Positions 1,211 to 37,880 are shown, counted from the whole stretch's first letter. The stretch is 62,844 nucleotides of DNA, filler included, from 6 parts of 6 records of this genome joined end to end with filler, not necessarily neighbours in it; one strand, 5' to 3'. Notes: generated from the sequence alone by a model not told the origin. Program-made: numbers and translations.

Positions 1211-2002
1211 CTATGCTAATCCTAATCTCTGACGAAAATCTTTTACGCGGCCTTTGCTGATAATAATTTCCTGCTCATCAATATGCTTCATTGTTACCAC
1301 ATATTTGCCGTTAAACCATGGCGCAAAGTCACGCACATGGGTCAAGTTGACCATCTCGCCACGGTTGGTGCGGAAAAAAGGTTGTCCTTGCAATCGTTCT
1401 TCCAGTTTATCTAGAGTCTTGTCTCCGTAGCAGGGGAAAATGCCTTTTTGTGTGTAAACCATGATCTTTCGTTCCTCTACCCGGCAGAGGATGACGTCGG
1501 ATGGTTCTAGCAGCAGAATACGTCCGCTAGCTTCTACTGAAATGCGTAGTACTTTGGTCCCCAAGCCCATGGTGTCCAGCAGGGAGTTCATGTCCGGCAT
1601 TTCCACTTTTTCTTCACAATTGGCATAGACGAGGCAGCGAATACGTTGGATGGATTTTTCGAGCCTTTCGCTTGAGAGAGGCTTGAGAATGTAATCCACA
1701 GCATTCTCTTCAAAGGCTTGCAGGGCATATTCATCGTAAGCAGTGGCAAAAACCACCAGCGGTGGTTCTGGAAGCCGCATGATTTCCTGCAAGACATGAA
1801 AACCGTTCTTGCCAGGCATCTGGATATCCAGAAATACGAGATCCGGTTCTTTTTCTTCAATAAGTTTAATGCCTTTAGTGGCGGAGGTGGCTGTTCCTAT
1901 TACATCGATATCGTTGAATTCTGAAAGTAAAAAACTGAGCTCATCAAGGGCTGGGGTTTCATCATCAACGAGGATACAGCGTATATTTTGTTGGCTGGAC
2001 AT
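1211..2002 (-). CDS. LytTR-family response regulator
   Basis: REC domain (ILVDDE, FLDIQMPG, FATAY, DYILKP) plus LytTR domain (FFRTNRGEMVN); likely start ATG 2002 (MSSQQ). Confidence 0.92.
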   Translation of the reverse strand: MSSQQNIRCILVDDETPALDELSFLLSEFNDIDVIGTATSATKGIKLIEEKEPDLVFLDIQMPGKNGFHVLQEIMRLPEPPLVVFATAYDEYALQAFEENAVDYILKPLSSERLEKSIQRIRCLVYANCEEKVEMPDMNSLLDTMGLGTKVLRISVEASGRILLLEPSDVILCRVEERKIMVYTQKGIFPCYGDKTLDKLEERLQGQPFFRTNRGEMVNLTHVRDFAPWFNGKYVVTMKHIDEQEIIISKGRVKDFRQRLGLA

Positions 2003-2082
2003 GAATTCGTCCTTAAAGTGAAAATCGTTGAAAAGCAAATATGAAAAAAGGGTACAAGCTCCAGCCTGTACCCTTATGTTGG

Positions 2083-3954: not shown

Positions 3955-5955
3955 TTAAAAATCTACATGGCTTTCTTGCAGGATTGCTTTGCCGGATTGT
4001 GTTTCGATTACTGCACCAAGGGCTTCGATAACAGTACTGTCGTACTTTTTGTCCGCCATGCTTTTCAGGATATCAACGGCCTGATGGGCTGTTTTGGCCT
4101 TCCTGTATGAACGTTTCTGAACCAGCGCGCTAAAGGTGTTGGTTACCCCAAGAATTCTGGCCAGAGTGGATATGCTTTTACCTTCCAGCTGGTTGGGATA
4201 GCCTGTGCCGTCAAGTGTCTCCTGCATCTGCCAGATGGTCTGGGTGATGGGCAGATCGAATTCAACGCCATCAAGGATCTTGCAGGTGTGCTCAATATAT
4301 CTCTGGGTTTCTTTAATCTCTTCCGGGCTGAGCTTGCCTTCTTTTTCCATGATTTCTCTTGGAACAAAGGTTTTACCCACCTGAGAGAGAATTGCCGCAG
4401 CTTCAACTGTTGCACAATCAGCATCACTTAAGAGCAGTGTCTCAGCGATTTCAAGGGCTAGCTTACGCATGAGCGATGTGTGGCCGTCCAGAAACGGGAC
4501 ACTCTCCACTGCCCGGATCAAGGCATTGATGACCTGCTGGCGAACTTCAATTCCTCTTTCAGACGCATTTTTTTCCGAGGTAACATCCCGATATACCGTC
4601 AGGATTGCGTCGCTTTCCTCATCAACGGAACAGGGAACAAAAGTAACCTGAATAGTCGATTTGCTGGAGCCACGGGTCAGGGTCAACTCCTCGCTATAAG
4701 AGCTGTTGGACATGCTGACCATTTGGTCGCCATGGGAAAGGGTTTCGGCTTCAGCGTGGTCAAAGACCTGATTGTCAGTCAGGTTCAGGGCTTCTTTCTG
4801 CTTTAGCCCGGTGAAATTAGTGAAGGATTTATTTACATGGATAAATGCTCCGCCTTTACTCTTTTTCAGGCTTATTGGTTCCGGCAGGGCATTGTTGATG
4901 ATGCGCAACAGGGAAAGCTCATTTTGCAGAGCAGCAATTTTTTCTTCCAGTCTGGAACTTTTGCGGTGGTATTTACGGGTGGAGACGATAAAGCGGACAG
5001 TAAGCACAAAGAAGATCATTGCCGCAAGAAGCAAAGAAGCGAAAATAATGCTTTCCTGTTGGTAGATTGAAATAATTCTGTTCGGCACCGTAGTGGCAGT
5101 TTCAACCATTACCCACCAGTTTACTACAGGAATAAACCGGGCAGTGGAGTAGACTTCTTTTTCCATGGAAAGATCAGTTCTTATTCCGAAAAGAACTTCG
5201 CTGAACCCATCAAAAGATACTTCCATGGTTTGGAGTTTCAGACTGTTGGGATAGCTGAATATGGCTTCTTCGCTGCTCTTGCCGTTCTGCTGGATCAGGT
5301 GGATTGAACTTTCATATTTAAAGGTTAGTTCAGAGCCGAGAAAAGTCTGTAGGGCGGCAGTCATGGGAACTTCAAGCATAAGTACCCGTGATGGCGGTGT
5401 GGATGTGCTGGTGGCATACGCATCGTAAACAGGCAGAAAAAGATCGGCAACCAGACCATTTCCTTTAGTTCGAAGCGGTGTAAACATGGGGGTACGGCTA
5501 TGTAGGGTCTTTTGAACAGCCTGTTTGTGCCCTCGTCCCATAATTTCTTCCGCTACTTCGGTGGATGCGAAAATATTTCCGTCCGGTTCAAAAAGACAGC
5601 CTGCGGAGTATCCGCTGACTTTGACGAAGTTTTCGAAGTCTTCTTGAGCCTTACGAACTTCATTTTTCTTTTGGGATTTTAGGCCGTCCATGGCGAGCCT
5701 GAAAATTCTGGCTCGGGCCAGTTCCTTGCCGCGAATTACGTAGTTAATCAACTGGGAAGAAAGCAGTTCCGATTCATTTTCAAGAACAGCCTTTTGATAA
5801 TTTTTAAGATCAGTGCGGACGGTCTGTTCTTTTTCTTTCCAAAGGTAGCTGAGCGTTTCAAAAGTTCCGCCTGTCAGTGCCAGCACCAGCAGGATCAGCA
5901 GCAGATTTTTGATGGAGAAAATCTGTTTGATAGTTGCAGTAATATTGTTCGCCAT
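3955..5955 (-). CDS. Inner-membrane TM-periplasmic(Cache-like)-TM-PAS protein with degenerate HD-GYP domain; putative c-di-GMP receptor (DvhD-like)
   Basis: Two TM helices, PAS (LPEPISLK..VNKSF), DGTGYP retained, but HD is SQ (LSQVGK), HHE is MQE and the late Asp motif is TNTFSAL; likely start ATG 5955 with CAGGAA upstream. Confidence 0.8.
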   Translation of the reverse strand: MANNITATIKQIFSIKNLLLILLVLALTGGTFETLSYLWKEKEQTVRTDLKNYQKAVLENESELLSSQLINYVIRGKELARARIFRLAMDGLKSQKKNEVRKAQEDFENFVKVSGYSAGCLFEPDGNIFASTEVAEEIMGRGHKQAVQKTLHSRTPMFTPLRTKGNGLVADLFLPVYDAYATSTSTPPSRVLMLEVPMTAALQTFLGSELTFKYESSIHLIQQNGKSSEEAIFSYPNSLKLQTMEVSFDGFSEVLFGIRTDLSMEKEVYSTARFIPVVNWWVMVETATTVPNRIISIYQQESIIFASLLLAAMIFFVLTVRFIVSTRKYHRKSSRLEEKIAALQNELSLLRIINNALPEPISLKKSKGGAFIHVNKSFTNFTGLKQKEALNLTDNQVFDHAEAETLSHGDQMVSMSNSSYSEELTLTRGSSKSTIQVTFVPCSVDEESDAILTVYRDVTSEKNASERGIEVRQQVINALIRAVESVPFLDGHTSLMRKLALEIAETLLLSDADCATVEAAAILSQVGKTFVPREIMEKEGKLSPEEIKETQRYIEHTCKILDGVEFDLPITQTIWQMQETLDGTGYPNQLEGKSISTLARILGVTNTFSALVQKRSYRKAKTAHQAVDILKSMADKKYDSTVIEALGAVIETQSGKAILQESHVDF

Positions 5956-5992
5956 TTTTATTTCCTGTTCATGAACTTGGTGGTCACGATTA

Positions 5993-7285
5993 TCAGCGGG
6001 TTCTGTGTTCGGAAAGGGCACCACGCATTCCCCTTGTGATAGGGGAGAGCAGGTATTCAAGTACACTTTCTTCGCCGGAGAGAATGTTAACTTCTACGAT
6101 CATACCCGGCAGGAATTCTTTAACCTTATCCGCATCTTCCTTAATGGTATTGAAGATTACACGGTAGTACCATGTGCGGGTCAGGTCATCGAAGTATGTC
6201 TTGGCCGAGATGTTGACGATCTTGGCTTTTAGCATGGTCTGATCTGAAAATTCATATGATGAAGGCCTGATTTTGGCCGTCATGCCGTTCCATATTTTGG
6301 TCCGGTCACTGGGCTGAACTTTGCCTTCAATGCGAATGGTGGCATCAAGGGGCACGATTTCAGCCAGTGCTTCTCCGGAACGGACAATGCCGCCCACAGT
6401 GTTTGCACTGAGTTTGTAGATGGTGCCATCAATGGGGGAGCGGATAACGCTTCGCACAATCTGTTCGTTAGCGGCATTCAGTTCTTCGCGGACCCCTTTC
6501 AGCTCAGAGCTGACAAGGTTGATCTCTTCGCGGATATCCCGGTAAAAATCCAGCTCTTCTTGATTAATGCGCTGTTCCAGCTCGCGGATCTCAAGGGAGT
6601 ACTCATCCCGTTTGTTATAAATCTCGGCAATGCTGGTAGTGATTTTAGCCAGCTCGGTTTTGCGTTGTAGCAGAAGCTGACGGGAACCGATTCCTTTTTT
6701 TACCATGGGTTCCAGCATATCGTGCTGTTCTTTGAGTACCTTTTGTTCATCAAGCAGGTTCTTCACATGCTCTTCACTGGCAGAACGGGCTGCCTTAGAT
6801 TGCTGGATCTGGGTTTTAAGGATATTGATTTTTTCTTCAAGTGCATCTCCTCGGATGCGGGCGAATTGAATTTCGCTCCTTTCTTCCGGGGTCGAAGATT
6901 TTTGCGCGAACTTATCTGTATTGTTGTTGCTTTCGGCAATGAGACGGTTCAGCTTGGCTTGTAGCCGTTTCATTTTGATAAGGGATTTATTTCTTTTTTC
7001 AGTGATATTTGTGTTGGCAATGGCGACAATTTCCTGTCCTTTGCGGACCGTATCACCTTCCTCGACAAACACTTTTTCAACCACGCCACCCTCAAAGTGT
7101 CCCACGATTTTATCGGTAAGGTTGGTTTCCACTACACCTTGAGCACGTACTGTCTTTTCTATCTTGCTGGAGTGTGCCCACAGCATGAAAACAGCTGAAA
7201 AGGACAGTATGAGCAGCAGGACAATGCAGTTACCGAGGCTTTTCTCTAAGGACCAGAGCAGATTGCTTTTCCAGTTTTTTCCCAT
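5993..7285 (-). CDS. HlyD-family T1SS membrane fusion protein (SiiD/LapC-like)
   Basis: Single N-terminal TM, EGGVVEKVFVEEGDTVRKGQ, IRSPIDGTI, GGIVRSGEALAEIVP, LPGM, SVLEYLLSP. Confidence 0.93.
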   Translation of the reverse strand: MGKNWKSNLLWSLEKSLGNCIVLLLILSFSAVFMLWAHSSKIEKTVRAQGVVETNLTDKIVGHFEGGVVEKVFVEEGDTVRKGQEIVAIANTNITEKRNKSLIKMKRLQAKLNRLIAESNNNTDKFAQKSSTPEERSEIQFARIRGDALEEKINILKTQIQQSKAARSASEEHVKNLLDEQKVLKEQHDMLEPMVKKGIGSRQLLLQRKTELAKITTSIAEIYNKRDEYSLEIRELEQRINQEELDFYRDIREEINLVSSELKGVREELNAANEQIVRSVIRSPIDGTIYKLSANTVGGIVRSGEALAEIVPLDATIRIEGKVQPSDRTKIWNGMTAKIRPSSYEFSDQTMLKAKIVNISAKTYFDDLTRTWYYRVIFNTIKEDADKVKEFLPGMIVEVNILSGEESVLEYLLSPITRGMRGALSEHRTR

Positions 7286-7287
7286 GA

Positions 7288-9540
7288 TTACCCCTGTCTG
7301 GCCGGAGCCGGGCTGGAAAGTTTCCGGATGATTTCGTCGCGCGGGCCGTCGGCGACAATGCGGCCTTGATCCACAACGAGAATTCTATCCACAACCTCAA
7401 GAATCTGCGGTCTGTGGGTGACTACGAAAATGGACTTATCGGCCATGGTCCCCTTGATCTGATGGATGAGCATACGTTCCTGTGTGGAGTCCATGGAGCT
7501 GGTCGGTTCATCAAGTAGCAGCAGGGGCGGGGAGCTGATCAGTGCTCGGGCAACCGCCACGGCCTGACGCTGTCCTCTTGAAAGGTTCTTTCCTCCTTCG
7601 AGGATGGGCATTTTAAGGCCTAGCGGGTGTTTGGAAACAAATCTTTCAATGCCGGAAATAGCCAGAGCCTGTTGCAGCGATTCCTGAGTGGCTGCGCGTG
7701 AGCCCATGAGTAGGTTAAGTTCAAGAGTGCCGTGAAAAAGCACGGGAGACTGTGGAACTACGCCGACAAATTCACGCACTTTTTCGATGTTCAGGTGGGC
7801 CATATTGTGCCCGTCCAGCATGATCAGTCCTTCACTGGGGTCTGCCAACCCGGCCAGTAGTTTGAGCAGGGTTGATTTACCGCTGCCCATGGGGCCTATG
7901 ATCCCTACTTTTTCCCCCGGTTTTATTTCAAAGGAGATGTTTTCAAGGGCGTATGGTGATTCCGGCTGGTAGCGGAAAGAAACGCTGTCGAAGCGCACTC
8001 CGCCGCTCAGTTGCTGGATTTTGAACTGGCGGGTTTCGCAGCTTTCTTTTTCCAGTTCAATGATTTTACGCAGGTCCTTGTATGAACGGCGTGCAAACAG
8101 GTAAGAGGTTATTAAATTTGACATACTTGCGGAAACCGCAATGCAGCGGCCGGAAAGAACCATAGTCGCCAGCAGGCCACCACTGCTCATGCTTCCGTTT
8201 TTGATCAAGAAGAATGCAACAATGAGCAGTCCTGCGGAGTTGAGTTGACCCAAAAATCCGGTGGTCATGGAACAGCGTGATTGGGCAAGACGGTATTTTG
8301 AGGACATCTCTCCAGACTTTTCAATTTCAGAAGCCCAGCGGGAAACAAAGAGTCTTGCCGCATTGGTTACTTTTATGGATTCAACACCATTGAAAATTTC
8401 ATTTAAAAATGAACTTTTGCGTGATTGCAGTTTGCTTTGGGCTGATACGTTTGTATCAATGAAAAAGCCGTAGACGATAGCTACAATCAGGACCAGAAAA
8501 GAAGTCACAGCCGGAACAGCAAAGAGCATTCCGCTGTTCAGGTAAATGATGAAGAGAAAGAAAAATAGAAAGAAGAAATCAATGGACCCGACCACCAGTT
8601 GGGTCGTGAACAAGGATTTAATGCGTGAGAATTCCTGCACTGCATGAGTCAGATGTCCAGCTGAGATCGGTAGCTTAGAGTAGTTGGTGTCCAGCACAAG
8701 GGATAGTAGTTGCGGTTCTGCGTCCTGCTCCACGCGCAAGGCTGCCTTTTCCACAAGTGAGGTACGCACATTCTTGAGGATATAGTCAAAGGCAAGTACT
8801 ATTATGGCCCCAGTGATCAGCACCTTGAGCGAGTTCTCCGCAAGGTTGGGGAGGATGCGGTCATAGAAGATACCCATCAGCAGGGGGATGACCAGAGTAA
8901 AGCAATGGATCATCACCGTGGCCAGTATGACTTGGGAGTACATGGGCCACATCTTGCTGATCTGTCCCATAAACCAGGTAAGGCTTAAAAAGGGGACTTT
9001 GTCAGTCTCGAAGACAGGCTTAAGCGAACAGGACCAGTCTTTGAATTCCGAGAATTCAGACTCCCGGTTCCTGATGATTTCCTGTCTGCCGTTCCAGAGG
9101 GTCAGTCTTCGGCCTACTTTTTCCTCGATAAGCGCAAAGCTGCCGTCTGAGTATTGCACAATCAGAGGCAGCATTTCATCTTCTATTTTCAGCGGCAGGG
9201 GCTTGATGGATAGGTTCAGCCCCATATTATCCGCCTGTAACCGCAGGTATTCATTAGTAGGTGACGCACTACCCAGTTGCAGGGAACTGCCGGTAACTAC
9301 TATGCCGTATTTATCGGCAATTTTTTTCAGGCAGGAGGTTACCGAGGCCCCTTTTTCATCTTCACCGGGGTTGAATAGGCCTATATTTTCCTGAGGTACA
9401 AAGTCCTTTTTGTCAAAATCGTTGTTATCCTGCTGAGTTGCACTTTTGGTGTCAATAGTATCGCCGGAATCTGAGGCTGATTTTGTTTGTTGCTCAGCCT
9501 CAGGCTCTGGAGCCGGGGTTGGTTTTTTCTGGTTGTCCAA
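7288..9540 (-). CDS. T1SS ABC transporter/permease (SiiF/LapB/LssB-like) with C39-like N-domain
   Basis: FYDRILPN, Walker A GPMGSGKST, signature LSRGQRQ, Walker B LLLLDEPT, H-loop VTHR; TTG start. Confidence 0.93.
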   Translation of the reverse strand: MDNQKKPTPAPEPEAEQQTKSASDSGDTIDTKSATQQDNNDFDKKDFVPQENIGLFNPGEDEKGASVTSCLKKIADKYGIVVTGSSLQLGSASPTNEYLRLQADNMGLNLSIKPLPLKIEDEMLPLIVQYSDGSFALIEEKVGRRLTLWNGRQEIIRNRESEFSEFKDWSCSLKPVFETDKVPFLSLTWFMGQISKMWPMYSQVILATVMIHCFTLVIPLLMGIFYDRILPNLAENSLKVLITGAIIVLAFDYILKNVRTSLVEKAALRVEQDAEPQLLSLVLDTNYSKLPISAGHLTHAVQEFSRIKSLFTTQLVVGSIDFFFLFFFLFIIYLNSGMLFAVPAVTSFLVLIVAIVYGFFIDTNVSAQSKLQSRKSSFLNEIFNGVESIKVTNAARLFVSRWASEIEKSGEMSSKYRLAQSRCSMTTGFLGQLNSAGLLIVAFFLIKNGSMSSGGLLATMVLSGRCIAVSASMSNLITSYLFARRSYKDLRKIIELEKESCETRQFKIQQLSGGVRFDSVSFRYQPESPYALENISFEIKPGEKVGIIGPMGSGKSTLLKLLAGLADPSEGLIMLDGHNMAHLNIEKVREFVGVVPQSPVLFHGTLELNLLMGSRAATQESLQQALAISGIERFVSKHPLGLKMPILEGGKNLSRGQRQAVAVARALISSPPLLLLDEPTSSMDSTQERMLIHQIKGTMADKSIFVVTHRPQILEVVDRILVVDQGRIVADGPRDEIIRKLSSPAPARQG

Positions 9541-9551
9541 GTCCCTGCCCC

Positions 9552-10499
9552 TTATTTCTTAACAGAAACGTTCAAGTCTTTACTTTTATTCGTTTTACCA
9601 AAGCTGCTGCCGATGCTGACCACAACCTGATTGGTGCCAGGTACACCTTCGTTCAGCGCACGGAATTTAATCTTGTTTTTAGGAATGTGTGCTTGGTCGT
9701 TTACGAACTTGATCAGCCCGTAAAGCCTTTTAAAGGATACGGAGTTGGCCATGCTGGATGAGACCGCTTCATGATTGAGCGTCGCAGTAAGCAGTAACCC
9801 TTTTTGCATGATTACAGATTCATTCTGCTTTACCCATGCCAGCAGCTCTGATTCGGTCTTTTCTTCAAGGGTACTGGTCAACTTGTTGTAAAGAATGATG
9901 ACCCGGTTTTTATTGTTCAATCCTTGAACCATCTTGGTAATAAACGGCGGCGGAACGAATTCATCTTCAGTCTGGACCTTTTTCTCAATTGCTCCTTTAG
10001 CTTCAAGACGCTTGATTTTATCAAGGGCGGCCTGAAGTTTTGCAGCAAGTTTGGGGTCCTTTGAGGTCTGTTGCTTTTTGACTTCTTCTTTGAGTCTTTG
10101 GAGTTCCTGATGGGCTGTCCATGCAGCACTTTCCGCAAGGGCCACTCTTTTCTGGAGCATTTTCTTTTCCCGCTCCAATTCTTCAATGTCAATGCGTTGG
10201 GGCTGGGGAGTAGTTACAAGGTCTTCTTTTCCCAGAACAGCACTTTGGGTCATGGCTTCGGTCAGTTTGTCCATAGAAGACGGTTTTTCCATAAAAGAAA
10301 GATCCTGCGCCGCAGCCACCAAGGTTTCCACTTGCTCGGTGGAGTGGGCGGCTCCGGGCTTAACTTCCTTGAGCGCAACAATATATGAGAGCGTTCCGGT
10401 TACCAGCACCATGAGCAGGGTGAAGAACACCATCATCATGAGTACGGTTGAGAGCGCATCAACAAAACCCGGCCACGGAGGGCCGCTATCAGCAGACAT
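9552..10499 (-). CDS. MotB/SiiA-like single-TM protein with C-terminal OmpA-like domain
   Basis: N-terminal PWPGFVDALSTVL with membrane Asp14, coiled-coil stalk, C-terminal ANSVSFKRLYGLIKFVNDQAHIPKNKI resembling the OmpA N..LS..RA..V...L...GI...RI pattern. Confidence 0.75.
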   Translation of the reverse strand: MSADSGPPWPGFVDALSTVLMMMVFFTLLMVLVTGTLSYIVALKEVKPGAAHSTEQVETLVAAAQDLSFMEKPSSMDKLTEAMTQSAVLGKEDLVTTPQPQRIDIEELEREKKMLQKRVALAESAAWTAHQELQRLKEEVKKQQTSKDPKLAAKLQAALDKIKRLEAKGAIEKKVQTEDEFVPPPFITKMVQGLNNKNRVIILYNKLTSTLEEKTESELLAWVKQNESVIMQKGLLLTATLNHEAVSSSMANSVSFKRLYGLIKFVNDQAHIPKNKIKFRALNEGVPGTNQVVVSIGSSFGKTNKSKDLNVSVKK

Positions 10500-10534
10500 T
10501 TATATTTTTCCCCGTAAAATCGTATATCTACAAT

Positions 10535-13500: not shown

Positions 13501-16500
13501 TTCCGGCCTTATCTGTGCTGGTGATGGTGGCAGTGTATTCTCCGCCTTGCAGATACGGATTATTGCTGCCTTGTCCGTAATGGTATTCCCAGTTACCGCT
13601 GGCATCAGCAATTGTGCTGGCGTCTAATCTCAGTACCTCGGTTCCGCTTTTATCCGTAATGGAAATAATGGTGGTAACATCGTTCTCGGTTGTGGATGTA
13701 CCTGCCAGACGCGGAGTCAAGTCGGTTATGGAATTAAGCGCGGAATCGGGATAAATATCGCCGTCATCCTCGGTCAGGTTGATTGCCGGGGTGGCGGGGC
13801 CATGTGTATCGAGGTTGATGGATATGGACTCAGCCTCAACGTTACCGGCCTTATCTTCAGAGACGATGATAACCTTATAGTATTTATCCCCGTCGCTGAG
13901 GTTGGGGGTAGCCACCCAACTTCCGTCACTGCCGACGGTTACTTCAGTTACCAACGATGCTTTGTTGGTTTCCATGAAAGTACGCAGCTGAGCATCATTC
14001 ATGGAAGTGGGGTCGGCACTGGCATTCAGGGCCGCTTCACTGTCGAAACTTATGACCATCATTCTGGCTTTGCTGCCGACTTCCGCTTTCCCTGAAAGTT
14101 CAGGGGTAGAGTCTTTGGTCAGGATGATCTCTTTAACCCCGATGTCGGTTTCCCCGGTATCGGAACCGGCATCCATTGCCAATGTCAGGTCATCAGAATC
14201 GTATTCTGAGTCGATGACAACGGTTTTGGTAGTTGTGGTGGGGTTACCGTAGGCATCAGTGGTGGTGAAAGTAAAAGTGTAAGTGCCGTCAGCCAGAGAT
14301 GTGGACATATCAATATGGTCCGCGGCAAGCTCTCCGGCATCATCATAGGTACGACTGAATGAAAATGAAGAATCTCCCGCTTTGGAGGCGGTGACTACAA
14401 GTGTGGTACCAACATCTTTCCGGATATTGAAATCCGGGTCTGAATCACGGGTTACCCAGTCCTGATCTGTGTTCGCACCAAAATACTGGGCAGTGGTATC
14501 CTCGGTCATGGAGATGACCGGAGCCGTGGGGTTGGAAGAAATTACAAGTTGGGAATCAAGGCTGATTGTTCCGGTATTGCCCGCAATGTCGGTGATCTTA
14601 GCGGTAACGTCATAGCTGCCGTCGGCTATGCCGCTGTCCGGGGTAATGGTCCAGTTTCCGTTTTTGTCGGCAGTCACGCTTTCGGCGTACTCTACGTCGT
14701 TACCAAATTTATCTGTACCCTTGATGAGCAGTTCCACCAGAGCATAGGCTTCGGTTGTTCCCTGCATGGTCGGGGTATGGTCACTGGTGGCATTATCACC
14801 GCTGACCCCGGTGTCGGAACCAGCTGCCAGTCTGATAGTGCTGGTATCGGTATCGACCTTGTTGTCGAGGACCAAAGTCTTGTGCAGGGTAGTGCTGTTT
14901 CCTGCTGGGTCGGTGGCTTTGATGACAACATCGTTGTTGCCGAGATTCAGCTTGTTGTTATCCAGGCTGAGTGTTGAAAGATCAAAGTTGATTTTACCCG
15001 CAGCAGCTTCAGCATCGGTTACGGTGTGGGTAAAGGTGTGACCGTTCACTGTAACGGTAATGGTAGCACCTTCACTGGCGTCAACGTCAATACTCAGGTT
15101 GTCGTCAATGCTGGTGATCCAGTCATCGGTGTATGAACCACCGCGTCCGGTATCCAGTCCGCTGCCGAGGGCCGCGGAAATAACCGGGTCTGTGCGGTCG
15201 ATATTGATGTCGTAGGTGTCACTGGATGGAACAGTGGTCTGGTTGCCCGCAGCATCTTCGACAATGATTTTGAAATTGTGTTCGCCTTCAGAAATGTATT
15301 TGGCGGAGTCTGTGTCATCGCCAACATTAAAGGACCATTTGTAGCCGCTTCCGGTGTTGGTGATTGTCGCATTTCCGAGATAATGGGGATTGCCTGCACC
15401 ATCCACGCCGTCGTACACGCGTACAACAAGTTTGTCTGAACCTTCCTGAAGTGTTCCGGTCAGGGTCAGTTTGGTGGCATTAGTCTCATTGTCCACGTCG
15501 GAAAGACCGAGAGTGGCTGCATCTTCAACCTCAATATCCCCGACCACTGGAGCTTCATCATCAATGGTTACCGGGTAAATTGCTGAAGTGGCAGTGTTTC
15601 CGGCAGCATCCTCAGCAACTGCAATGAATTGGAGATCTGTCGTATTATTCTCATAGGCGGAAGCATCAAAGGAAACAGTCTGACCGTTTGTGGCTGACCC
15701 GACCAGAGTCGCTTTGTAATCCACGCCGCCCACAGTGATGGTGTGAGTCCCGGCAGCATCTACAACATAGACGCTGATGGTATCATCGTGGTCTCCGGTT
15801 ACCTTGAATTCAATATCAGTATCTTTGGTGCCGGAGCCGTCTTTTACGAATCCGGTGATGTTATCGCCAACTGTTCCCGGACCGCCGATGGTGTTGCTGG
15901 CAGCATCAAGGGCAATGGTCGGAATGGATATCTGCTGATCGGAGGTAAAGGTGAAAGTCTCGGACGCGTCACTCACGTTACCTGCGGCGTCTTCCACAGT
16001 GACGTAATAGGAGTACTTCTGATCATGTACTAGTCCGGTTACATCATAGGACCAGTTTATTGATCCGCCTGATTCGGTAATGGAAAGGAGTCCTCCGCCA
16101 TCAGTCTGGCTGTGCGCAATTTCGGTAACAGTGCCGTCCGCATTCTTGCGGTAGAGGGTGACAATTACATCATCCGCACCTTCGAGAATCTTACCTGTGA
16201 GGGTAAGTCTGTCGCCTTTTACTGTCGCGGAATATCCGTTGGAGTCATGAGAAATTTTATCGTCACCAAGTCCGTCAATGGTGATGGTGGATTTTACCGG
16301 GGCGGTGTTGTCGACGGTCACGGTCAGGTCTGCGCTTTCAATGTTGCCTGCTACGTCTGTGATTTCAGCAACTATTTTAAGTTGCTCTGCGCCTGCTTTA
16401 CCATAAGTAGAAGCATCAAGATTGTATTTCCAGCTACCGTCTGCTTCGGCCTGAATATAACCTGCGGTGTTGATCAGGGTTTTGTTGCCGGCGGCATCTT

Positions 16501-18310
16501 CGAAATAGAGGTTAACCCGGCCTGCTGATCCGGCTCCTGTCCCGCTAATCTTCAGGAGTCCAGCACCGTCTGGATCGCTTGCTTCAGTTCCGTGAGTGTA
16601 GTCGTCTGTTTTGTTGCCAAGCTCAGCGCGGTGGTCTTGTGAATCACTGTCAGCATCAAGATCAATATCTAGACCCTCAGTGGGAGCAGTGCGGTCGATT
16701 TCTACGGGCAGACTGGAAGCAGGTTGGTAAATATTACCTGCCATATCCATGGCTTCGACCATGAAGGTATAGGTTCCGTCAGCTGGGATTTTGCTATTAT
16801 CTACAGTGTAGGTCCACGCAGTCTTAGCCGCGTTGAGGCTAGCTGTTCCAAGTTCGGTTTTGGTACCGTCTGCATTAGCCAGATATACTGTTACCTGACG
16901 CGTATCTGTAACAATATTACTGATGGTCAATTTTAGATCAGTTTCATTGGTTATTTTATCGTTCGCTGCGGCATCAGCATGGGTTCCCATGGAATCAGAC
17001 ACAGTGTCGAGAGCGATGGTCGCACCAGTAGTGAAAGATGTCTTAATTACTACATTTTGAATCTGCTGGGTCGTAGCCAGAGCATTACCCGCATCATCTT
17101 GGCCGGCGATGGTGAAGGTGTAGGTTCCATCAGCAAGTTCACTGCCTTCGGGGAAACGGTAGCTCCAGTTACCACTGCTGTTTACGGTGATATCCTTAAG
17201 GGTTCCTGTAACCGAACCGTCCGTACTGGTGTAAGTGATGGTCAGGATAGTATCGCTTTCGCCAGTACCTTCAATGAGCGGGCGGTTCTGGTTGGTGTAA
17301 ATTTTCCCCGCATCTTCCGCAAAGGTTACCTTGGAAGTTGAGTCTGCTGTAGCATCGTCATTGAGAGTCGGTGCTGTAGTATCTACTTCGACTTCCAATT
17401 TGCTTGATTTAGCTGCACTTTCTCCCGTTCCATCGACTATCTGGGCATAAAATTCGTGATCACCTTCGGCTGCTCCGGTGAGGGTGATATTGTAGTTGCC
17501 GTCTGCGTTGGCAGTTGCTTCCCCTACCTTTGACCCATCCATGAAAATGTTGAGTTTAGTGTTCGGATCAGCAGTGCCTGTAAGCTTCAGGTCCGTTTTG
17601 TTGGTGATTCCGTCTTCTTTGAATTTGGTTTCACTTGTATCACTGTCAGTAATCTTAATACCGGACTCTGATTCCTGAGAAAGGGCAATGGTTACCTTGC
17701 CACTGTTAGGAGTAGGGACGGGGATTGGGTCCGGTATAACGGGGTCTATGGGGTCTGTTTTATCCTTTTCCGGATCATCTGGGTCGTCTGATGGGTCATC
17801 GTGCTTATTTTCTTCAGTATCAATTTTATCAATTGTGTCAGGAGTACTGGAAAGACTCTCCTGCTGCGCAAACTTGTTGATATCATCGAACATGCGCTGC
17901 TGGGTCTTGAGGATGTCGTCGGTGGGGTCGGTGACGAGTGCTGCCTGAGCGTTCAGAAGTTGGCCTTCGCCGAGGTTGCCCTCGTCGGAGTTGCCTTCTT
18001 CGTCTTCTGAGGGGGTGGAATCATCGGTTACAGCTTCCCATTCAGGGGCTTCTTCGTCCTGCTTATCCATGTCAGGCATTTCCGAACGGTGAAACAGGCT
18101 CGGGGAATCAAGGGACTGGCCGTCGGAGAATTCCATGTTGACCTGTCCGTCAAGACTCATGATGTTACCTACAAAGAGGAATACCTGCTCTTCATTGGTC
18201 TGCTTATTGACCAGAATAAGGTCAGCACCTTTGAGGACGTAGTTATAGTCGTCAGGGGAGCCTTGGACATTATATGCTGTTGACGGAGAAACTTTCTGTG
18301 TGTCAGCCAT
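10535..18310 (-). CDS. Giant (2591 aa) T1SS-secreted Ig-like repeat adhesin (SiiE/BapA-like)
   Basis: Asp/Thr/Gly-rich, more than 15 D-x-A-G-N motifs at roughly 100-aa spacing, SD(T/S)G..GD.IT motifs, no Sec signal, embedded among T1SS genes. Confidence 0.9.
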   Translation of the reverse strand: MADTQKVSPSTAYNVQGSPDDYNYVLKGADLILVNKQTNEEQVFLFVGNIMSLDGQVNMEFSDGQSLDSPSLFHRSEMPDMDKQDEEAPEWEAVTDDSTPSEDEEGNSDEGNLGEGQLLNAQAALVTDPTDDILKTQQRMFDDINKFAQQESLSSTPDTIDKIDTEENKHDDPSDDPDDPEKDKTDPIDPVIPDPIPVPTPNSGKVTIALSQESESGIKITDSDTSETKFKEDGITNKTDLKLTGTADPNTKLNIFMDGSKVGEATANADGNYNITLTGAAEGDHEFYAQIVDGTGESAAKSSKLEVEVDTTAPTLNDDATADSTSKVTFAEDAGKIYTNQNRPLIEGTGESDTILTITYTSTDGSVTGTLKDITVNSSGNWSYRFPEGSELADGTYTFTIAGQDDAGNALATTQQIQNVVIKTSFTTGATIALDTVSDSMGTHADAAANDKITNETDLKLTISNIVTDTRQVTVYLANADGTKTELGTASLNAAKTAWTYTVDNSKIPADGTYTFMVEAMDMAGNIYQPASSLPVEIDRTAPTEGLDIDLDADSDSQDHRAELGNKTDDYTHGTEASDPDGAGLLKISGTGAGSAGRVNLYFEDAAGNKTLINTAGYIQAEADGSWKYNLDASTYGKAGAEQLKIVAEITDVAGNIESADLTVTVDNTAPVKSTITIDGLGDDKISHDSNGYSATVKGDRLTLTGKILEGADDVIVTLYRKNADGTVTEIAHSQTDGGGLLSITESGGSINWSYDVTGLVHDQKYSYYVTVEDAAGNVSDASETFTFTSDQQISIPTIALDAASNTIGGPGTVGDNITGFVKDGSGTKDTDIEFKVTGDHDDTISVYVVDAAGTHTITVGGVDYKATLVGSATNGQTVSFDASAYENNTTDLQFIAVAEDAAGNTATSAIYPVTIDDEAPVVGDIEVEDAATLGLSDVDNETNATKLTLTGTLQEGSDKLVVRVYDGVDGAGNPHYLGNATITNTGSGYKWSFNVGDDTDSAKYISEGEHNFKIIVEDAAGNQTTVPSSDTYDINIDRTDPVISAALGSGLDTGRGGSYTDDWITSIDDNLSIDVDASEGATITVTVNGHTFTHTVTDAEAAAGKINFDLSTLSLDNNKLNLGNNDVVIKATDPAGNSTTLHKTLVLDNKVDTDTSTIRLAAGSDTGVSGDNATSDHTPTMQGTTEAYALVELLIKGTDKFGNDVEYAESVTADKNGNWTITPDSGIADGSYDVTAKITDIAGNTGTISLDSQLVISSNPTAPVISMTEDTTAQYFGANTDQDWVTRDSDPDFNIRKDVGTTLVVTASKAGDSSFSFSRTYDDAGELAADHIDMSTSLADGTYTFTFTTTDAYGNPTTTTKTVVIDSEYDSDDLTLAMDAGSDTGETDIGVKEIILTKDSTPELSGKAEVGSKARMMVISFDSEAALNASADPTSMNDAQLRTFMETNKASLVTEVTVGSDGSWVATPNLSDGDKYYKVIIVSEDKAGNVEAESISINLDTHGPATPAINLTEDDGDIYPDSALNSITDLTPRLAGTSTTENDVTTIISITDKSGTEVLRLDASTIADASGNWEYHYGQGSNNPYLQGGEYTATITSTDKAGNVSKDSKEFTILQDLAAKPTVELATDDDTNIVGDGITSTALLAADTKLTLTGTAVAFQEVKIYDDGDNLIGTSKSGENGVWTYDFGTNPSGVNIYYVVANGKRSDNFTLNVDNSTPDPTADLKNDSGTDGDWITNDPTIEGNVEADSTVKVSAERVYELTDNGNGTYSYTDGAGTSHTINTADKTIIDGKDYFVSTEKYTYTVDSDNIRSDGSYETGELATILNGKDGQYRVTVNSTDVAGNSSNLVIPNILDLDTTIDKPTIGIKAGDDSYLAPDADGDIVNSSGTKVGSYADLPSGFRNPSVAYDKDNITNDRNLVLTGDAEAGATVVVSITLNGTITKYTVTADANGTWECTPGNLLDGNYTASVKITDTAGNTSTSDSLSFEVDLSPTRSAYIDLANDDDTYTNDATPQLNIIGDTGAAYVLYYVDKTTGDLTAVKSGTFANAYQNYTVPSASALAEGDHSYRLVTVDKAGNVQSRDYTIHVDLTPPEAAQGITFTQIDETGSTPTTVNTYVEQTGKVVNINTNDNTTDLIVKAASGTSLVELVRSDGQVVASGSVNSSGNARLDLTSQDLNIIDDGSYTYTLKFYDSVGNQRDANNVTVNLVVDTTDPTVTMNMSSSSDRGFNEEVGSILTSGESFTFEGKFAEDRSINYTTEMAYLIVISNGLETWTYNSLDSANQDSHIQNITVNADGTYHFDFLDNDSAHPLADGNYNVSIKAIDQAGNTSDASTVDFQLDNNNINQTQLTMTADVVGSKRYVSLEQSHYTGDNDPSTTDTHYKYELTLHDTDGNTTQTSSGDLTEGDDIELSFRDDSSTYDYAEVKITDKAGNESESQYIDLDKSDLNYSADLGKDSDVASVKASLYVDTNNNGVVDAGDTVYDGFQDVAVSDNWSKNFAALTEGNYVLQLKGYDSGDTAIASSKTEFSFSIDDMDTGTTTDDIFNTNSDQDFNGAKEGAGGNTTDTTSGTHTVVDVEVHHDHIDFNIS

Positions 18311-18312
18311 GA

Positions 18313-19866
18313 CTATTCACCTATAGCAGAGTAGAGGGAGTTGCTGTTTTCAAATGGAACTTCTTCCACTGATAGCCCCAGAATTTCGGGGAGTCTGCCT
18401 TGTTCGAGAAAAATATTGAGTGCCGCGCGGATTCTAGAATAGCGGGCGTTCACTTCGCGCACAGCTGCGCTTGTTTGCCCTTCGCGGGCAGTAATGAGAT
18501 CGAGCAGGGTTCGGATACCGAGATCAAATTCACTCAAGTAGAGGCTCATGAGGTTGATACTTGCATCATAGGCGTCCCGGGCAAGCTCGAATTCCTTTTT
18601 AGACGACTTGTGAGCATTGAAGGCATCGGAAAGGATATTCTGAACTTCAAGCTCGGTGGCTTCCTTGGTTGCCTGCAATCTTTTTAGTACGGCTTCTTCC
18701 CTTTTTACGCCTTCGTCTGTGGCATAGCCGTTGAACAGGTTCCAGTTGACGGTGACCTGAGCGTCCAGAGCATTTTCATAGCCATCGTATTTTTTGAATT
18801 CACTCTTGGCCTGCAACCTGTACCCGAATGAGGGGTAGTAGTTTGCTTCTACTGTGGAGACTGCTTTTTTCTGTGATTCAATTTCAGCATCATAAGCCCT
18901 GAGGTTTACGTTGTTGGCCTTGGCAATTTCGTAGGCTCCTTCGAGGGTCTCTGAAATTTTCATTTTAGCCATGGCAATGTCAGTTTCGACTTCATTGACA
19001 GGCTGCTTGATGATGTTTTCGAGAAGCAGTCTGGCTGTTTTGAGCTGCTGCTTCTGTACAGTGACTTGGGATTCAGTGGACCGCAGCGAGACTTCAACCT
19101 TGCGGGCATCAGCCTTTGAGGAGATACCGGCATTGTAGCGTTCCCAGAAAGTCTTCAGCAGTTTGTTGTAAAATTCCAAGCTGTTGTTGTATACCTGCAG
19201 GGTCTCCTGCGCCTGCATCACGCTCAGGTATGAGTTGATGGCAAGAGCTGCAATGTCTTCCTGTGTACGGGCCAGACGGTATTTCGCGCCTACAGCCTTC
19301 ATCTTGGCACTGTCCACACTGTCGTCCAGACCGCCGAAGTTGAAGAATGTCTGGGTCATGGCAACGGAGGACTGCCCGTAACTGGTGGTCTCTGTATCGA
19401 GGTTATGCGAAGGACCGGCCTGTGCTGTAAAGTCGATCCGTGGCATGTATACCTGACGGGCCATGCCGTACTCTGCATTCTTTTCAAGTAAAGAGTAGCG
19501 GGATGATGCCACCAGCGGATGGTTGCCTACAGCCAGTTCACAGGCATGCTGTAGGGTCAGGGGCGTCGCATTCGCTGCATTGGGACTGTTTTCCTGTAAG
19601 GAAGAGCCCTTCTCGCCGGGGTCTTCAATCTTGATGACTCCCTGTTTAAAGGATTCAATGTCCTCAGCGTTTTTGTACTCTTGGTTCTTATTTTCCAACC
19701 CCGAAAGGTTGACTGTTTCTACTGAGTTTTCCATTATAGGCTGGGGAGGAGTGCCTTGTGTGGAATTTTCTGCAAAAGAAACATTGCTCTGGAAAGTAAG
19801 GAGCGCACAGAGAATGCAAGCTGTTCCGAATTTCTTAATCATCATCCCTGACATATATTCACCCAA
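18313..19866 (-). CDS. TolC-family outer-membrane protein of the T1SS (SiiC/LapE-like)
   Basis: Signal peptide, two OEP repeats, WNLFNG, EFDLGIRTLLDLI. Confidence 0.93.
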   Translation of the reverse strand: MGEYMSGMMIKKFGTACILCALLTFQSNVSFAENSTQGTPPQPIMENSVETVNLSGLENKNQEYKNAEDIESFKQGVIKIEDPGEKGSSLQENSPNAANATPLTLQHACELAVGNHPLVASSRYSLLEKNAEYGMARQVYMPRIDFTAQAGPSHNLDTETTSYGQSSVAMTQTFFNFGGLDDSVDSAKMKAVGAKYRLARTQEDIAALAINSYLSVMQAQETLQVYNNSLEFYNKLLKTFWERYNAGISSKADARKVEVSLRSTESQVTVQKQQLKTARLLLENIIKQPVNEVETDIAMAKMKISETLEGAYEIAKANNVNLRAYDAEIESQKKAVSTVEANYYPSFGYRLQAKSEFKKYDGYENALDAQVTVNWNLFNGYATDEGVKREEAVLKRLQATKEATELEVQNILSDAFNAHKSSKKEFELARDAYDASINLMSLYLSEFDLGIRTLLDLITAREGQTSAAVREVNARYSRIRAALNIFLEQGRLPEILGLSVEEVPFENSNSLYSAIGE

Positions 19867-19883
19867 AATATTTAATAACTGGC

Positions 19884-20966
19884 TTAATTTTTAAGCTGTT
19901 TTTCATTCACTGTGTGCATGGTCTCAATGCTTTTTTCCAAAGCTGTGACCATCTGGCGCGATTCTTTGATCAGTCTTCCGGTTAGTTCGTTGCCGAGACC
20001 GATTTCTTTGGTTGTTTCCATAGACTGATCCTGAACAGTATTGATTGCTTCAGCTGAGCGCTGTTGGAGCAGGGTCAGTTTCAGCAGAAACTTGTTTGTG
20101 TTTTCAAGGGATTCAAGCAGGGCTTCGTTGTTCTTTTCCAGCTGGGTGGAAATTGCGGCCATCTGGCTGCCCAGATCCAAATCCGGGGAGATTGTACCTG
20201 CTGTGCCGGATTTGCTTGCAGCATATTCGGTCTTTTCATTGAGCCAGTTTTCAAGGCGCTGTTTGAGCTGGTCATGCATGCGGCCCAGAAGGATCGAGAG
20301 AACACCTACAACAGCACTGCCCGCAAGACCGAACAGGGAGGTTGAAAAAGCGGTCCCCATTCCGGCCATGGGGTTTTTCAGCTCAACAATAAGCTGAATC
20401 ATGACTTGCATTATGGATGTATCGCTGGAGTCGGTCAGTCCTCCAGCAAGGGTGGAAAGGATGTCCCCCATGGATTGCAGGGTCAGGGTAAGACCGAGAA
20501 ATGTTCCCATAAGGCCAAGCAGAACAAGGAATCCGCTTAGAAATGAGATCAAAGAAGAGCGAGAAGAAATATTTTGTTCAAGGCTCTCTATAATGGAACG
20601 GCTGTCACTGGACGATCTAACGATCAGGACGCCATTTTCTTTGATGGAACAGCCGATTGAAACAAGCACATTTCCGAGCAAACCTTTGTTCAGGTCATCC
20701 AATTCAAATGTACTGTCTTCAGGTTTTTCACACCACTCTGTAAAAGCGGCGAAAAGCTTCATATCTCTGCGCACTGAAAAGATATAACGGAAGGCAGTGA
20801 TCACACTTCCGGCAAATACGGCAAGGATAATGGAGTTGATTATTTCCGATGTGGCAAAAAGAGTTTTCAAAAAGGCGAAACTAACCACTACGCTGCCGAT
20901 AACTGCAAGTAGTACAAAAATTGATAAAGTTAAATATAATCTATATTTATTGCTGTTGTAAGCCAT
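19884..20966 (-). CDS. MotA/TolQ/ExbB-family protein with cytoplasmic coiled-coil tail (SiiB-like)
   Basis: LVLLGLMGTFLGL and GMGTAFSTSLFGL helices typical of the MotA/ExbB channel domain; about 130-aa helical C-tail; first gene of the operon. Confidence 0.85.
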   Translation of the reverse strand: MAYNSNKYRLYLTLSIFVLLAVIGSVVVSFAFLKTLFATSEIINSIILAVFAGSVITAFRYIFSVRRDMKLFAAFTEWCEKPEDSTFELDDLNKGLLGNVLVSIGCSIKENGVLIVRSSSDSRSIIESLEQNISSRSSLISFLSGFLVLLGLMGTFLGLTLTLQSMGDILSTLAGGLTDSSDTSIMQVMIQLIVELKNPMAGMGTAFSTSLFGLAGSAVVGVLSILLGRMHDQLKQRLENWLNEKTEYAASKSGTAGTISPDLDLGSQMAAISTQLEKNNEALLESLENTNKFLLKLTLLQQRSAEAINTVQDQSMETTKEIGLGNELTGRLIKESRQMVTALEKSIETMHTVNEKQLKN

Positions 20967-21237: not shown

Positions 21238-21430
21238 AGACTCCCTCCCCGGATCAGTGAAATTTAATTGGTAATCTTTTGGGCGTGTTTTGAAGAATAA
21301 TTATGTCGCCCAAGACACGTATTTTTATATTATTCTTATATAAATGTGAAGACTTTCCCTATTATATATTGATGATTGTAACAAGGGAATAATCCATTAA
21401 TGAATGTATGTGTTTAAGGCTTTGAAAAAT

Positions 21431-21464
21431 AAAAGGATTGCATGAAAAATCATGCAATCCTTTT
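21431..21464. terminator. Intrinsic terminator after psd
   Basis: AAAAGGATTGCATG-AAAAAT-CATGCAATCCTTTT perfect hairpin. Confidence 0.85.
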
Positions 21465-21489
21465 AAACTGATGCTAGTTAAAATTAAGC

Positions 21490-29112: not shown

Positions 29113-29356
29113 CGTAGTAGTCCTCCCGGCGCATCACGAGCTTGCGCATTTCCTTGGCCAACAAAACCAGAGCGACACAGCCGACAAATCCGTAGATGGC
29201 GTAAAATCCGTACCAGCCTTCCCACGACACCTCGGTGTGGCGATGGACCACGAAGTCGAGCCCGAACAGCACGGCGCACACAATGTACAGCCCGTAGATC
29301 AGGATGCGCACATTGCGTGGATTGTCGAACAAGTAGCTCTTTTCCTTGTCGTTCAT
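29102..29356 (-). CDS. Small 2-TM protein within the mrp operon
   Basis: 84 aa, GFYAIYGFVGCVALVLLAK..R..VMRREDYYD; overlaps the next gene. Confidence 0.8.
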   Translation of the reverse strand: MNDKEKSYLFDNPRNVRILIYGLYIVCAVLFGLDFVVHRHTEVSWEGWYGFYAIYGFVGCVALVLLAKEMRKLVMRREDYYDDK

Positions 29357-29366
29357 GGGGCCTGCC

Positions 29367-36119: not shown

Positions 36120-36127
36120 GGTCGTCC

Positions 36128-36440: not shown

Positions 36441-36441
36441 G

Positions 36442-36827: not shown

Positions 36828-36849
36828 CCTGCCTACCGTAACAGGCAGG
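36828..36849. repeat. Short palindromic element
   Basis: CCTGCCT-ACCGTAAC-AGGCAGG. Confidence 0.5.
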
Positions 36850-37879: not shown

Positions 37880-37880
37880 A

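Follow-up and report, generated by a model that had tools for sequence, protein, structure and literature searches.

A giant-adhesin secretion operon of Desulfovibrionaceae with a DvhD-family receptor and, in place of a protease gene, a MotAB-like pair

How might a bacterium hold a giant surface adhesin and let it go again, if its operon encodes the kind of receptor that regulates an adhesin-cutting protease, and the protease itself is missing? This question is raised by a locus from a free-living marine sulfate reducer. The window analysed here is a stretch of 62,844 nucleotides (nt) consisting of 6 parts of 6 records joined by filler; the parts are not necessarily neighbours in the genome. 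On its minus strand, the listing of open reading frames (ORFs) has seven co-oriented ORFs at positions 3955-20966. From 5' to 3' these encode a MotA/TolQ/ZorA-like protein, a TolC channel, a Big_13 adhesin, a MotB-like protein, an LssB-type ABC exporter, an HlyD protein and a receptor.

The receptor is related to DvhD, the cyclic di-GMP (c-di-GMP) receptor of the Dvh adhesin system of Desulfovibrio vulgaris. Since a receptor of this family was kept and the protease is absent, the locus is best described as a Dvh-type operon in which the protease is replaced by a stator-like pair. It works like Salmonella pathogenicity island 4 (SPI-4) in its parts list, and like the Dvh and Lap systems in its signalling logic. 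That this is a Dvh/Lap-type adhesin system with its output module exchanged, in which the c-di-GMP receptor now switches a motor, is in our estimate about an even bet.

The original prediction for this DNA, made from the sequence alone, described seven tightly packed genes with gaps of 2-37 nt, ending in a dead HD-GYP receptor. ORF coordinates and protein families agree with the seven genes. The receptor ORF was first called at 3955-6066 (minus strand, 703 residues). The alignment of its orthologues begins at Met37, so the gene most likely spans 3955-5958. With this start, the six intergenic gaps are 17, 2, 35, 11, 2 and 34 nt, the last one lying between hlyD and the receptor gene. The packing is as tight as claimed, with the range corrected to 2-35 nt.

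The receptor consists of a transmembrane segment, a periplasmic dCache domain, a second transmembrane segment, a PAS domain (Pfam PAS_4) and a degenerate HD-GYP domain (HD_5). It matches all three solved fragments of DvhD: the PAS/HD-GYP part (9rc0, E 3.3e-51, residues 346-662), the HD-GYP domain (9rbz, E 5.5e-40) and the dCache fragment (9rc2, E 4.2e-13, residues 110-288). In the translation, the HD of the metal site has become SQ and the double His has become MQ, with GYP retained. The motifs LSQVGK and WQMQE...GTGYP are invariant in 9/9 receptor orthologues.

DvhD itself has SQ for HD and MN for the double His, according to the accessible text of Font et al. 2026 (PMC13090378). As described there, DvhD binds c-di-GMP without hydrolysing it, and changes conformation upon binding. 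Under its control is the BTLCP protease DvhG, whose cleavage site in the adhesins is [T/A/P]AAG; how DvhD acts on this partner is called 'hitherto unknown'. Given the fragment matches and the same change from HD to SQ, what was called a 'dead HD-GYP' belongs to an established type of c-di-GMP receptor. The catalytic residues are thus degenerate as predicted, and the protein is no longer anonymous: it is a member of the DvhD family.

It is not a classic member, however. Identity to classic DvhDs is about 26-30% (tblastn). In an unrooted tree from a quick maximum-likelihood search, nine motor-linked receptors are split from 18 protease-linked ones by a single long branch (SH-aLRT 100), which places the window receptor in a separate clade. 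Two genomes (G006 and G009) have both kinds.

What does the locus have where a classic Dvh operon has its protease? In the accessible text of PMC13090378, the D. vulgaris system, from the same bacterial family, comprises DvhA, its type I secretion system (T1SS), DvhG and DvhD. Classic Dvh loci have the order ABC-HlyD-BTLCP-DvhD in 13/14 cases. The window shares the succession of ABC exporter, HlyD and receptor at the 3' end of the operon, but without a protease gene between hlyD and the receptor. Conversely, it has a MotAB-like pair, for which tblastn finds matches in 0/14 classic loci within about 10 kb. The idea that motor genes are hidden among the classic genes 'DVU1013-1018' was rejected: in four loci, what precedes the ABC gene is unrelated, namely genes for an alcohol dehydrogenase, CofD and a sigma-54 activator.

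The protease is not elsewhere in the window either. A profile of 12 Desulfovibrionaceae BTLCP sequences, run against the six-frame translation, finds no BTLCP/LapG homologue in the 62.8 kb, with nothing at E<=10; the best tblastn match has E 0.098. An absence first noted for 25.7 kb therefore holds for the entire window. The corresponding Pfam family, PF06035, is found in 0/5 genomes of the closest relatives, two of which are complete chromosomes with MotA-like proteins that are 87-97% identical. The same family is present in 160/301 sampled Desulfovibrionaceae genomes, so the search is sensitive enough in this family of bacteria.

A wider circle gives a more mixed picture. There are 17 genomes with a close MotA-like gene, made up of the nine with studied loci and another eight in which only the MotA-like match was seen. 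BTLCP is lacking in 12/17; 4/17 have an intact copy elsewhere, and in one the match is split. A genome-wide absence of LapG, looked at in relatives, is thus seen in these 12 genomes and not in the other five. Cross-talk between BTLCP and the motor operon is conceivable in those five genomes. In all four of these that were examined (4/4), BTLCP belongs to a classic ABC-HlyD-BTLCP-DvhD module apart from it, which carries a receptor paralogue of its own. The split case (L118, G305:C1:3450702-3451086) has its BTLCP match in two adjacent pieces of 30.1 and 21.8 bits in an otherwise classic module, which suggests a frameshifted or broken gene.

These genomes bear on the possibility that control is still of the ordinary Dvh/Lap kind: the receptor would regulate a protease located elsewhere, a BTLCP or one of another family, and the motor pair would have nothing to do with c-di-GMP. 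The protease search spans the window and the genomes of relatives, intact BTLCP genes do exist in four of the 17, and in several Lap systems the control extends to a second adhesin, with its gene away from lapDG (accessible text of PMC13090378). Against this stand the contrast between 0/5 close relatives and 160/301 in the family, the residence of BTLCP in its own module with its own receptor, and the adhesins themselves. A regular expression for the cleavage motif [TAP]AA[GV] finds this di-alanine site in 0/10 adhesin N-termini, over the first 300 residues, with one N-terminus (L006) only partly recovered; in this, too, the window differs from the Dvh system. We consider a protease acting from elsewhere improbable. 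Judged by what is absent, the protease route appears to be unused in the motor operon, which suggests that the adhesin is held and released without a protease.

The next question is what the two putative motor proteins are. For the MotA-like protein, PF01618 (MotA_ExbB) scores 21.1 bits, under its 22.9-bit cut-off. Five ZorA profiles match it with E 7.6e-12 to 1.5e-8. There is no NCBIfam model at E<=0.1, and searches of the PDB give nothing significant, with a best E of 0.049 for a single sequence (flagellar MotA) and of 0.053 for a profile (ZorA).

An AF2 model of this protein (mean pLDDT 73.9, pTM 0.53) has four long predicted transmembrane helices and a C-terminal helix of 95 residues (265-359). 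Among PDB folds, the matches at E<=0.001 are all TolQ chains (best E 3e-4), and next come ExbB (TMt up to 0.59) and ZorA (TMt 0.53-0.55). Overall the monomer fold matches have E 3e-4 to 1e-2 and TM 0.4-0.59. All of these are A subunits of 5:2 ion-driven motors. The label MotA-like is therefore backed by the ZorA profiles and by moderate TolQ/ExbB/ZorA folds, and not by PF01618.

Orthologues of the MotA-like protein are 46-97% identical. The nearest are from Maridesulfovibrio (87-97%), followed by Pseudodesulfovibrio and other Desulfovibrionaceae (46-74%). Beyond this family identity falls to about 22-34%, in Alphaproteobacteria. The motifs LLGLxGTFxGL and GMGTAFSTSLFGL in the third and fourth transmembrane helices are invariant even in relatives that are 22-27% identical.

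The C-terminal helix is strongly conserved as well: N291, F293-L295, N326, G330-L332 and R337 are invariant. A comparison of this tail with chemoreceptor signalling helices was non-significant (E 0.17-0.44) and is not used as evidence. One database source labels a MotA-like orthologue as a 'methyl-accepting chemotaxis protein'.

The likeness to ZorA invites the question if this could be a Zorya defence system. ZorA models are the best sequence-profile matches, ZorA chains are among the folds, and the long C-terminal helix resembles a very short ZorA tail. Zorya was rejected: the tail is about 95 residues long, compared to ZorA profiles of 683-1063 positions, and the neighbours are T1SS, adhesin and DvhD-family genes, with no ZorC, ZorD or ZorE. 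The partner subunit also differs from that of Zorya, with a predicted fold that is SiiA-like.

This partner, the MotB-like protein, has no Pfam match, and the NCBIfam model NF006543 covers only its N-terminal half. A single-sequence PDB search gives only noise, and the ESM Atlas has sub-threshold leads for the C-terminal part (0.88; one cluster, with OmpA in 24% of members). Its identity is based on two other things: an invariant W-P-G-F-V-D-A-L transmembrane motif that includes Asp14, and a C-terminal fold like that of OmpA and SiiA.

The protein starts with the transmembrane segment PPWPGFVDALSTVLMMM-FFTLLMVLV, which is invariant across nine orthologues that are 50-96% identical. No part of the protein is more constrained than the stretch P7-V33, which is invariant except at positions 24 and 34. 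Trp9, Pro10, Val13 and Asp14 are found in 19/19 aligned sequences, including the alphaproteobacterial ones.

The model of the MotB-like protein consists of a transmembrane helix, a disordered linker, helices at 105-168 and an alpha/beta OmpA-like domain at 187-298. The C-terminal blocks have a pLDDT of about 70-87. For this domain, Foldseek puts five chains of the periplasmic domain of Salmonella SiiA (SiiA-PD, 6qvp) on top, with E 2.8e-7 to 6.8e-6 and TMt 0.76-0.83 (0.82 for the top match), followed by domains of OmpA, Pal, TagL, YfiB and MotB. A second aligner (VIA) gives Z 14.1 for SiiA, with an rmsd of 1.8 A over 100/101 residues; its runner-up entry has Z 13.4, which by the rule of this tool (within 1 Z) is a tie. 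In the model, then, the periplasmic domain is closest to SiiA-PD, within that tie. The fold comparisons thus came out well for this subunit and moderately for the MotA-like one. Both labels are less secure than the original prediction had it; MotB-like is backed by transmembrane motif and model fold, and finds no counterpart in Pfam.

Do the two proteins belong together? In the window they are separated by tolC and the adhesin gene. In 64/71 loci outside the Desulfovibrionaceae, mostly alphaproteobacterial, the MotA-like gene is directly followed by a gene with the WPGFVD motif, in 48 of them also by tblastn. Because they are an adjacent pair in these relatives, the MotA-like and MotB-like proteins are taken as partners. 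A profile comparison of the Desulfovibrionaceae and alphaproteobacterial MotB-like sets, which match over the transmembrane segment, points the same way.

The alphaproteobacterial pairs are the closest sequence relatives of the motor pair outside the Desulfovibrionaceae, at about 25-34% identity. They consist of a MotA-like protein of about 380 residues, which ends in a helical tail, and of a PRK09039-type 'peptidoglycan-binding protein', which shares the WPGFVDAL motif. In this B subunit, the coiled coil is longer and the OmpA domain canonical. Most of these pairs have no T1SS or adhesin alongside.

Within the Desulfovibrionaceae the seven genes stay together, as a synteny check confirmed. 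The succession of MotA-like, TolC and adhesin genes is found in 9/9 loci. The MotB-like gene is on the same contig in 8/9 genomes, the ninth contig being just 4.4 kb long. The series MotB-like, ABC, HlyD and receptor follows in 8/8 extended loci at 43-98% protein identity. The whole order is thus present in 8/8 genomes with sufficiently long contigs. Genes flanking the seven are not conserved past the three nearest relatives.

The cargo of the operon is a protein with a conserved N-terminal module of about 90 residues, an acidic linker, at least 14 Big_13 domains (14 stretches match) and a C-terminal secretion-signal region. It has no HemolysinCabind (RTX) match at E<=0.01. Between orthologues, the body of the adhesin falls to about 30% identity and the first 90 or so residues stay highly conserved. 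With 39 invariant columns in nine sequences, this module is as conserved as the machinery. By analogy with LapA, DvhA and MpIBP, it is most likely a periplasmic retention plug.

The ABC exporter has ABC_tran and ABC_membrane domains and an N-terminal extension of about 190 residues; its best NCBIfam model is TIGR03375 (LssB), at 589.8 bits under the cut-off of 693. The HlyD protein scores over the cut-off of TIGR01843 (208.65 bits), and the TolC protein matches TIGR01844 (E 3.5e-50) under its cut-off. By homology, the LssB-type exporter, HlyD and TolC form a T1SS that would export the giant immunoglobulin (Ig)-repeat adhesin.

There are several similarities to the siiABCDEF genes of SPI-4, which encode a T1SS, the giant BIg adhesin SiiE and the proton channel SiiA/SiiB. 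As predicted, a single operon encodes the three T1SS components together with a giant Ig-repeat adhesin that is not of the RTX kind, and both a MotB-like and a MotA-like protein. In the accessible text of a preprint (bioRxiv 10.1101/641415), SiiA has Asp13 where the MotB-like protein has Asp14, and the same layout of an N-terminal transmembrane helix, a disordered linker and a compact periplasmic domain. CheM is, as far as its partly accessible source goes, a precedent for a membrane receptor that modulates retention.

There are differences too. The gene order is another one, with the pair of the window split up. The MotA-like protein is nearer to ZorA and to alphaproteobacterial proteins. The receptor is an operon-encoded c-di-GMP sensor, by homology, rather than a chemoreceptor, and the host is a free-living marine sulfate reducer. 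No sequence similarity was detected between the MotB-like protein and SiiA, so the motor pair is no siiAB orthologue.

The LapABCDEG system of Pseudomonas fluorescens has the same inside-out control by c-di-GMP, a T1SS-anchored giant adhesin and an N-terminal retention module, going by the accessible text of PMC13090378. LapD is built differently, with HAMP-GGDEF-EAL domains, a LapD/MoxY periplasmic domain and the protease LapG as output, and in that text there is no motor pair.

How could such a receptor and such a pair work together? Like the type member of its family, the inner-membrane receptor would sense c-di-GMP on its catalytically dead HD-GYP domain and pass the signal outward to the periplasmic dCache domain. 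At high c-di-GMP, this domain would engage or release the periplasmic domain of the MotB-like protein. The motor would then toggle, being plugged in one state and active and anchored to the wall in the other. This in turn would set the fate of the adhesin, which is either anchored in TolC or let go, as proposed for SiiAB. The motor might do this by anchoring the T1SS, by pulling on the N-terminal plug, or by way of the HlyD or ABC protein. The outcome would be a retention switch without a protease, potentially a reversible one.

The MotAB-like pair would thus have taken over the role of the protease as the periplasmic target of the receptor. In flagellar stators, the state of the periplasmic domain of MotB decides if the channel is plugged or active. 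Something similar has been proposed for SiiAB, where the state of the B-subunit's periplasmic domain sets that of the channel (accessible text of bioRxiv 10.1101/641415). If the state of this domain governs the channel, a receptor that binds or frees the domain would switch the motor.

The choice of the MotB-like protein as target is suggested by its layout. In DvhG of D. vulgaris, an N-terminal transmembrane helix is joined to a globular domain by about 180 residues of linker, according to the accessible text of PMC13090378. The model of the MotB-like protein resembles DvhG in this, with some 150 residues of linker between its transmembrane helix and its globular domain.

A complex prediction addressed this contact. 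Residues 176-300 of the MotB-like protein were set against the dCache domain plus the adhesin N-terminus, making three chains. The median ipSAE is 0.60 (0.60, 0.76, 0.45), and the best control, with the dCache domain replaced, reaches 0.20. Runs share at least 62% of contacts, and the pLDDT of the partner is at least 76. The tool rates this outcome as 'weak support'. In calibration, the ipSAE mark was reached by 51/78 solved complexes and 2/108 mismatched pairs. At or below 0.60, 5/78 solved complexes passed, and so did all 4 of the passing mismatches (of 180). The predicted contact between the MotB-like protein and the dCache domain raises the odds slightly, no more.

It is possible that receptor and motor are independent. 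The receptor would then act directly on the secretion apparatus or the adhesin, and the MotAB-like pair would have a separate job. For example, the dCache domain might hold the adhesin N-terminal module, or the receptor might gate the ABC or HlyD protein, with the pair, as SiiAB may, anchoring the T1SS or energising a late step. The strong conservation of the N-terminal module would fit this, and since the adhesin N-terminus is present in all complex runs, a three-way arrangement could be behind the score. T1SS loci with a MotA-like gene and no DvhD-like tblastn match exist (L025, L127 and L128, described below). To our knowledge, SiiAB of Salmonella SPI-4 also comes without an operon-encoded receptor. 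The accessible text of a 2025 review (PMC12607715) describes SiiABCDEF only.

The independence of the two sits less well with the complex prediction, where replacing the dCache domain took the score from 0.60 to 0.20 with the adhesin N-terminus kept. It also leaves aside that the known output of a dCache domain of this kind is DvhG, a membrane-tethered periplasmic protein on a long linker, the layout also found here (PMC13090378, accessible text). In addition, the motor-linked receptors form their own long-branched clade, as expected after a change of partner. On balance we hold independence to be rather unlikely.

Several findings weigh against a receptor-switched motor and have to be set beside the evidence for it. 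That c-di-GMP acts through the motor is something we infer. Contacts of DvhD with c-di-GMP (Y523, L577, K582, Y621, M646, R650, Y652, E668) were mapped by counting along the alignment with the receptor, and only 4/8 canonical ones are identical (L577, Y621, R650, Y652). Two changes are conservative, M646 to L and Y523 to F; the other two, K582 to I and E668 to M, are not. With four contacts identical, two conservative and two changed, c-di-GMP binding by this receptor subfamily is, from its sequence, likely and not certain. The protease census covers the window and the genomes of relatives, and it includes the four genomes with intact BTLCP and the one with a split match.

The same goes for the structural evidence. 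The MotB-like model has a mean pLDDT of 63.6 and was built from an alignment that includes relatives with canonical OmpA domains. With hhalign, its C-terminal domain stays unaligned to such domains. The Desulfovibrionaceae and alphaproteobacterial MotB-like sets align with 97% probability, over the transmembrane segment only, so homology of the C-terminal domain is unsupported by sequence profiles. A phmmer search against all PDB sequences, 6qvp included, does not return SiiA at E<=10. The complex prediction was alignment-free, with a three-chain set-up unlike the calibration; by the calibration of the tool, such a score misleads more often than not, except where the contact was already likely.

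Finally, the Asp of the OmpA 'GHTD' motif and the 'NRRIE' motif are absent from the MotB-like protein, so peptidoglycan binding is uncertain; Arg258, which aligns with a conserved Arg of the OmpA family, is kept. This loss, the PF01618 score under its cut-off and the moderate MotA-like folds would be expected if the pair were a degenerate structural remnant that tethers the T1SS by a non-peptidoglycan-binding OmpA-like domain, and no working ion motor. A remnant would hardly keep P7-V33 with Asp14 so constant across orthologues as little as 50% identical, or the MotA-like transmembrane motifs down to 22-27% identity. Such a remnant strikes us as quite unlikely.

The exchange of a protease for a motor can also be put in its strongest form. 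A c-di-GMP-bound DvhD-type receptor would directly gate a non-flagellar 5:2 rotary motor through a SiiA-like domain, and the motor would mechanically hold or expel the N-terminal plug of the adhesin in TolC. This control would be reversible and protease-free, and would have evolved by swapping the protease for the motor. In this full form the proposal is speculative, and we regard it as doubtful.

Motor-like genes next to T1SS genes are not confined to this operon. A contig from a metagenome-assembled genome of Pseudomonas fluorescens (QFOU01000001.1, L025:2048-12150) has, on one strand, genes for a 1407-residue RTX protein with 13 HemolysinCabind stretches, an ABC exporter and HlyD. Divergent from these are a 504-residue MotA-like protein and a 249-residue MotB-like one with a Pfam OmpA domain. 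This is an independent pairing of T1SS and motor, in a gammaproteobacterium.

Two further loci are from other Desulfobacterota. One (L127:5839-19548, genome G334) encodes a TolC-like protein, a 258-residue protein, HlyD, a MotA-like protein (459 residues, PF01618 19.8 bits), a 2049-residue RTX protein and an ABC exporter. In the other (L128:3195-9146, G391), HlyD adjoins a 575-residue MotA-like protein. Neither locus has a DvhD-like match. A third locus (L130:147-11336) is from the 2.2 Mb Desulfovibrionaceae genome G278, which also has BTLCP matches. It has genes for an ABC exporter, HlyD, a permease, a GGDEF protein, TolC, a 300-residue MotA-like and a 192-residue MotB-like protein; its ABC and HlyD proteins are 48% and 40% identical to those of the window. 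With the further loci in the Pseudomonas genome and other Desulfobacterota, motor-assisted T1SS look like a broader class that has been little described.

None of the parts is new in itself. What appears to be new is that a DvhD-family receptor occurs with a SiiAB-like pair and without a protease: as the original prediction had supposed, this combination was not found in the literature. Among the matches listed by the full-text searches, supplementary tables not included, no paper joins a DvhD or HD-GYP receptor with a MotAB/SiiAB-type T1SS accessory. By term search, the accessible text of two papers on Dvh and of a survey of MotAB homologues from 2025 (PMC13090378, PMC10690286, PMC12505986) makes no mention of it.

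The role of SiiAB-type proteins in adhesin-secreting T1SS is still called unclear in the accessible text of the 2025 review (PMC12607715). The case for a motor-assisted T1SS has so far rested on Salmonella alone; in environmental sulfate reducers, this operon now provides a conserved example that was put together independently. Because the receptor was kept and the protease swapped for a similarly membrane-tethered motor subunit, it also offers a natural comparison for recognition of the dCache output surface. If the coupling is true, it would mean protease-free and potentially reversible control of biofilm attachment in bacteria relevant to corrosion. If the motor is also gated directly, the long-unexplained SiiAB-type accessories of T1SS would gain a defined regulatory logic.

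Table 1. Features of the adhesin operon and its upstream edge, in window coordinates.
Feature	Position	Strand	Remarks
MotA/TolQ/ExbB/ZorA-like inner-membrane motor subunit	19884..20966	-	360 aa
TolC-family outer-membrane channel	18313..19866	-	517 aa; OEP E 3.7e-44
Giant non-RTX Ig-repeat adhesin	10535..18310	-	2591 aa; Big_13 E 1.2e-137
MotB/SiiA-like subunit	9552..10499	-	315 aa; NF006543, N-terminal half, E 7.6e-11
T1SS ABC exporter, LssB type	7288..9540	-	750 aa; TIGR03375 589.8 bits
HlyD-family T1SS membrane-fusion protein	5993..7285	-	430 aa; TIGR01843 279.5 bits
DvhD-family c-di-GMP receptor	3955..5958	-	667 aa from Met37; HD_5 E 6.7e-49
Terminator-like hairpin, 16 pairs + T run	21430..21465	-	consensus scan only

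The hairpin closes the upstream psd gene and, as a consensus match only, would mark the upstream edge of the operon. The same kind of scan finds promoter-like hexamers after the hairpin, at 21350-21321 and 21097-21069 on the minus strand. An Rfam scan of the window has no family at gathering score, and therefore no c-di-GMP riboswitch.

Directly downstream of the receptor gene, at 2083-3783 (minus strand), is a gene for a 566-residue protein without a Pfam or NCBIfam family and with only weak coiled-coil-like matches. It is followed by a LytTR response regulator gene at 1211-2038 (minus strand). These two genes are kept only in the three nearest relatives.

Further away, positions 36000-44000 have a low GC content of 35-39%, compared to 45-58% around them. 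The genes here encode a GFO/IDH/MocA oxidoreductase, a His_kinase (PF06580) sensor and a beta-lactamase-family protein; this part may be an acquired island. At 27418-32317 (minus strand), a high-GC stretch contains three consecutive Proton_antipo_M genes, which are antiporter subunits of the Mrp/Nuo type.

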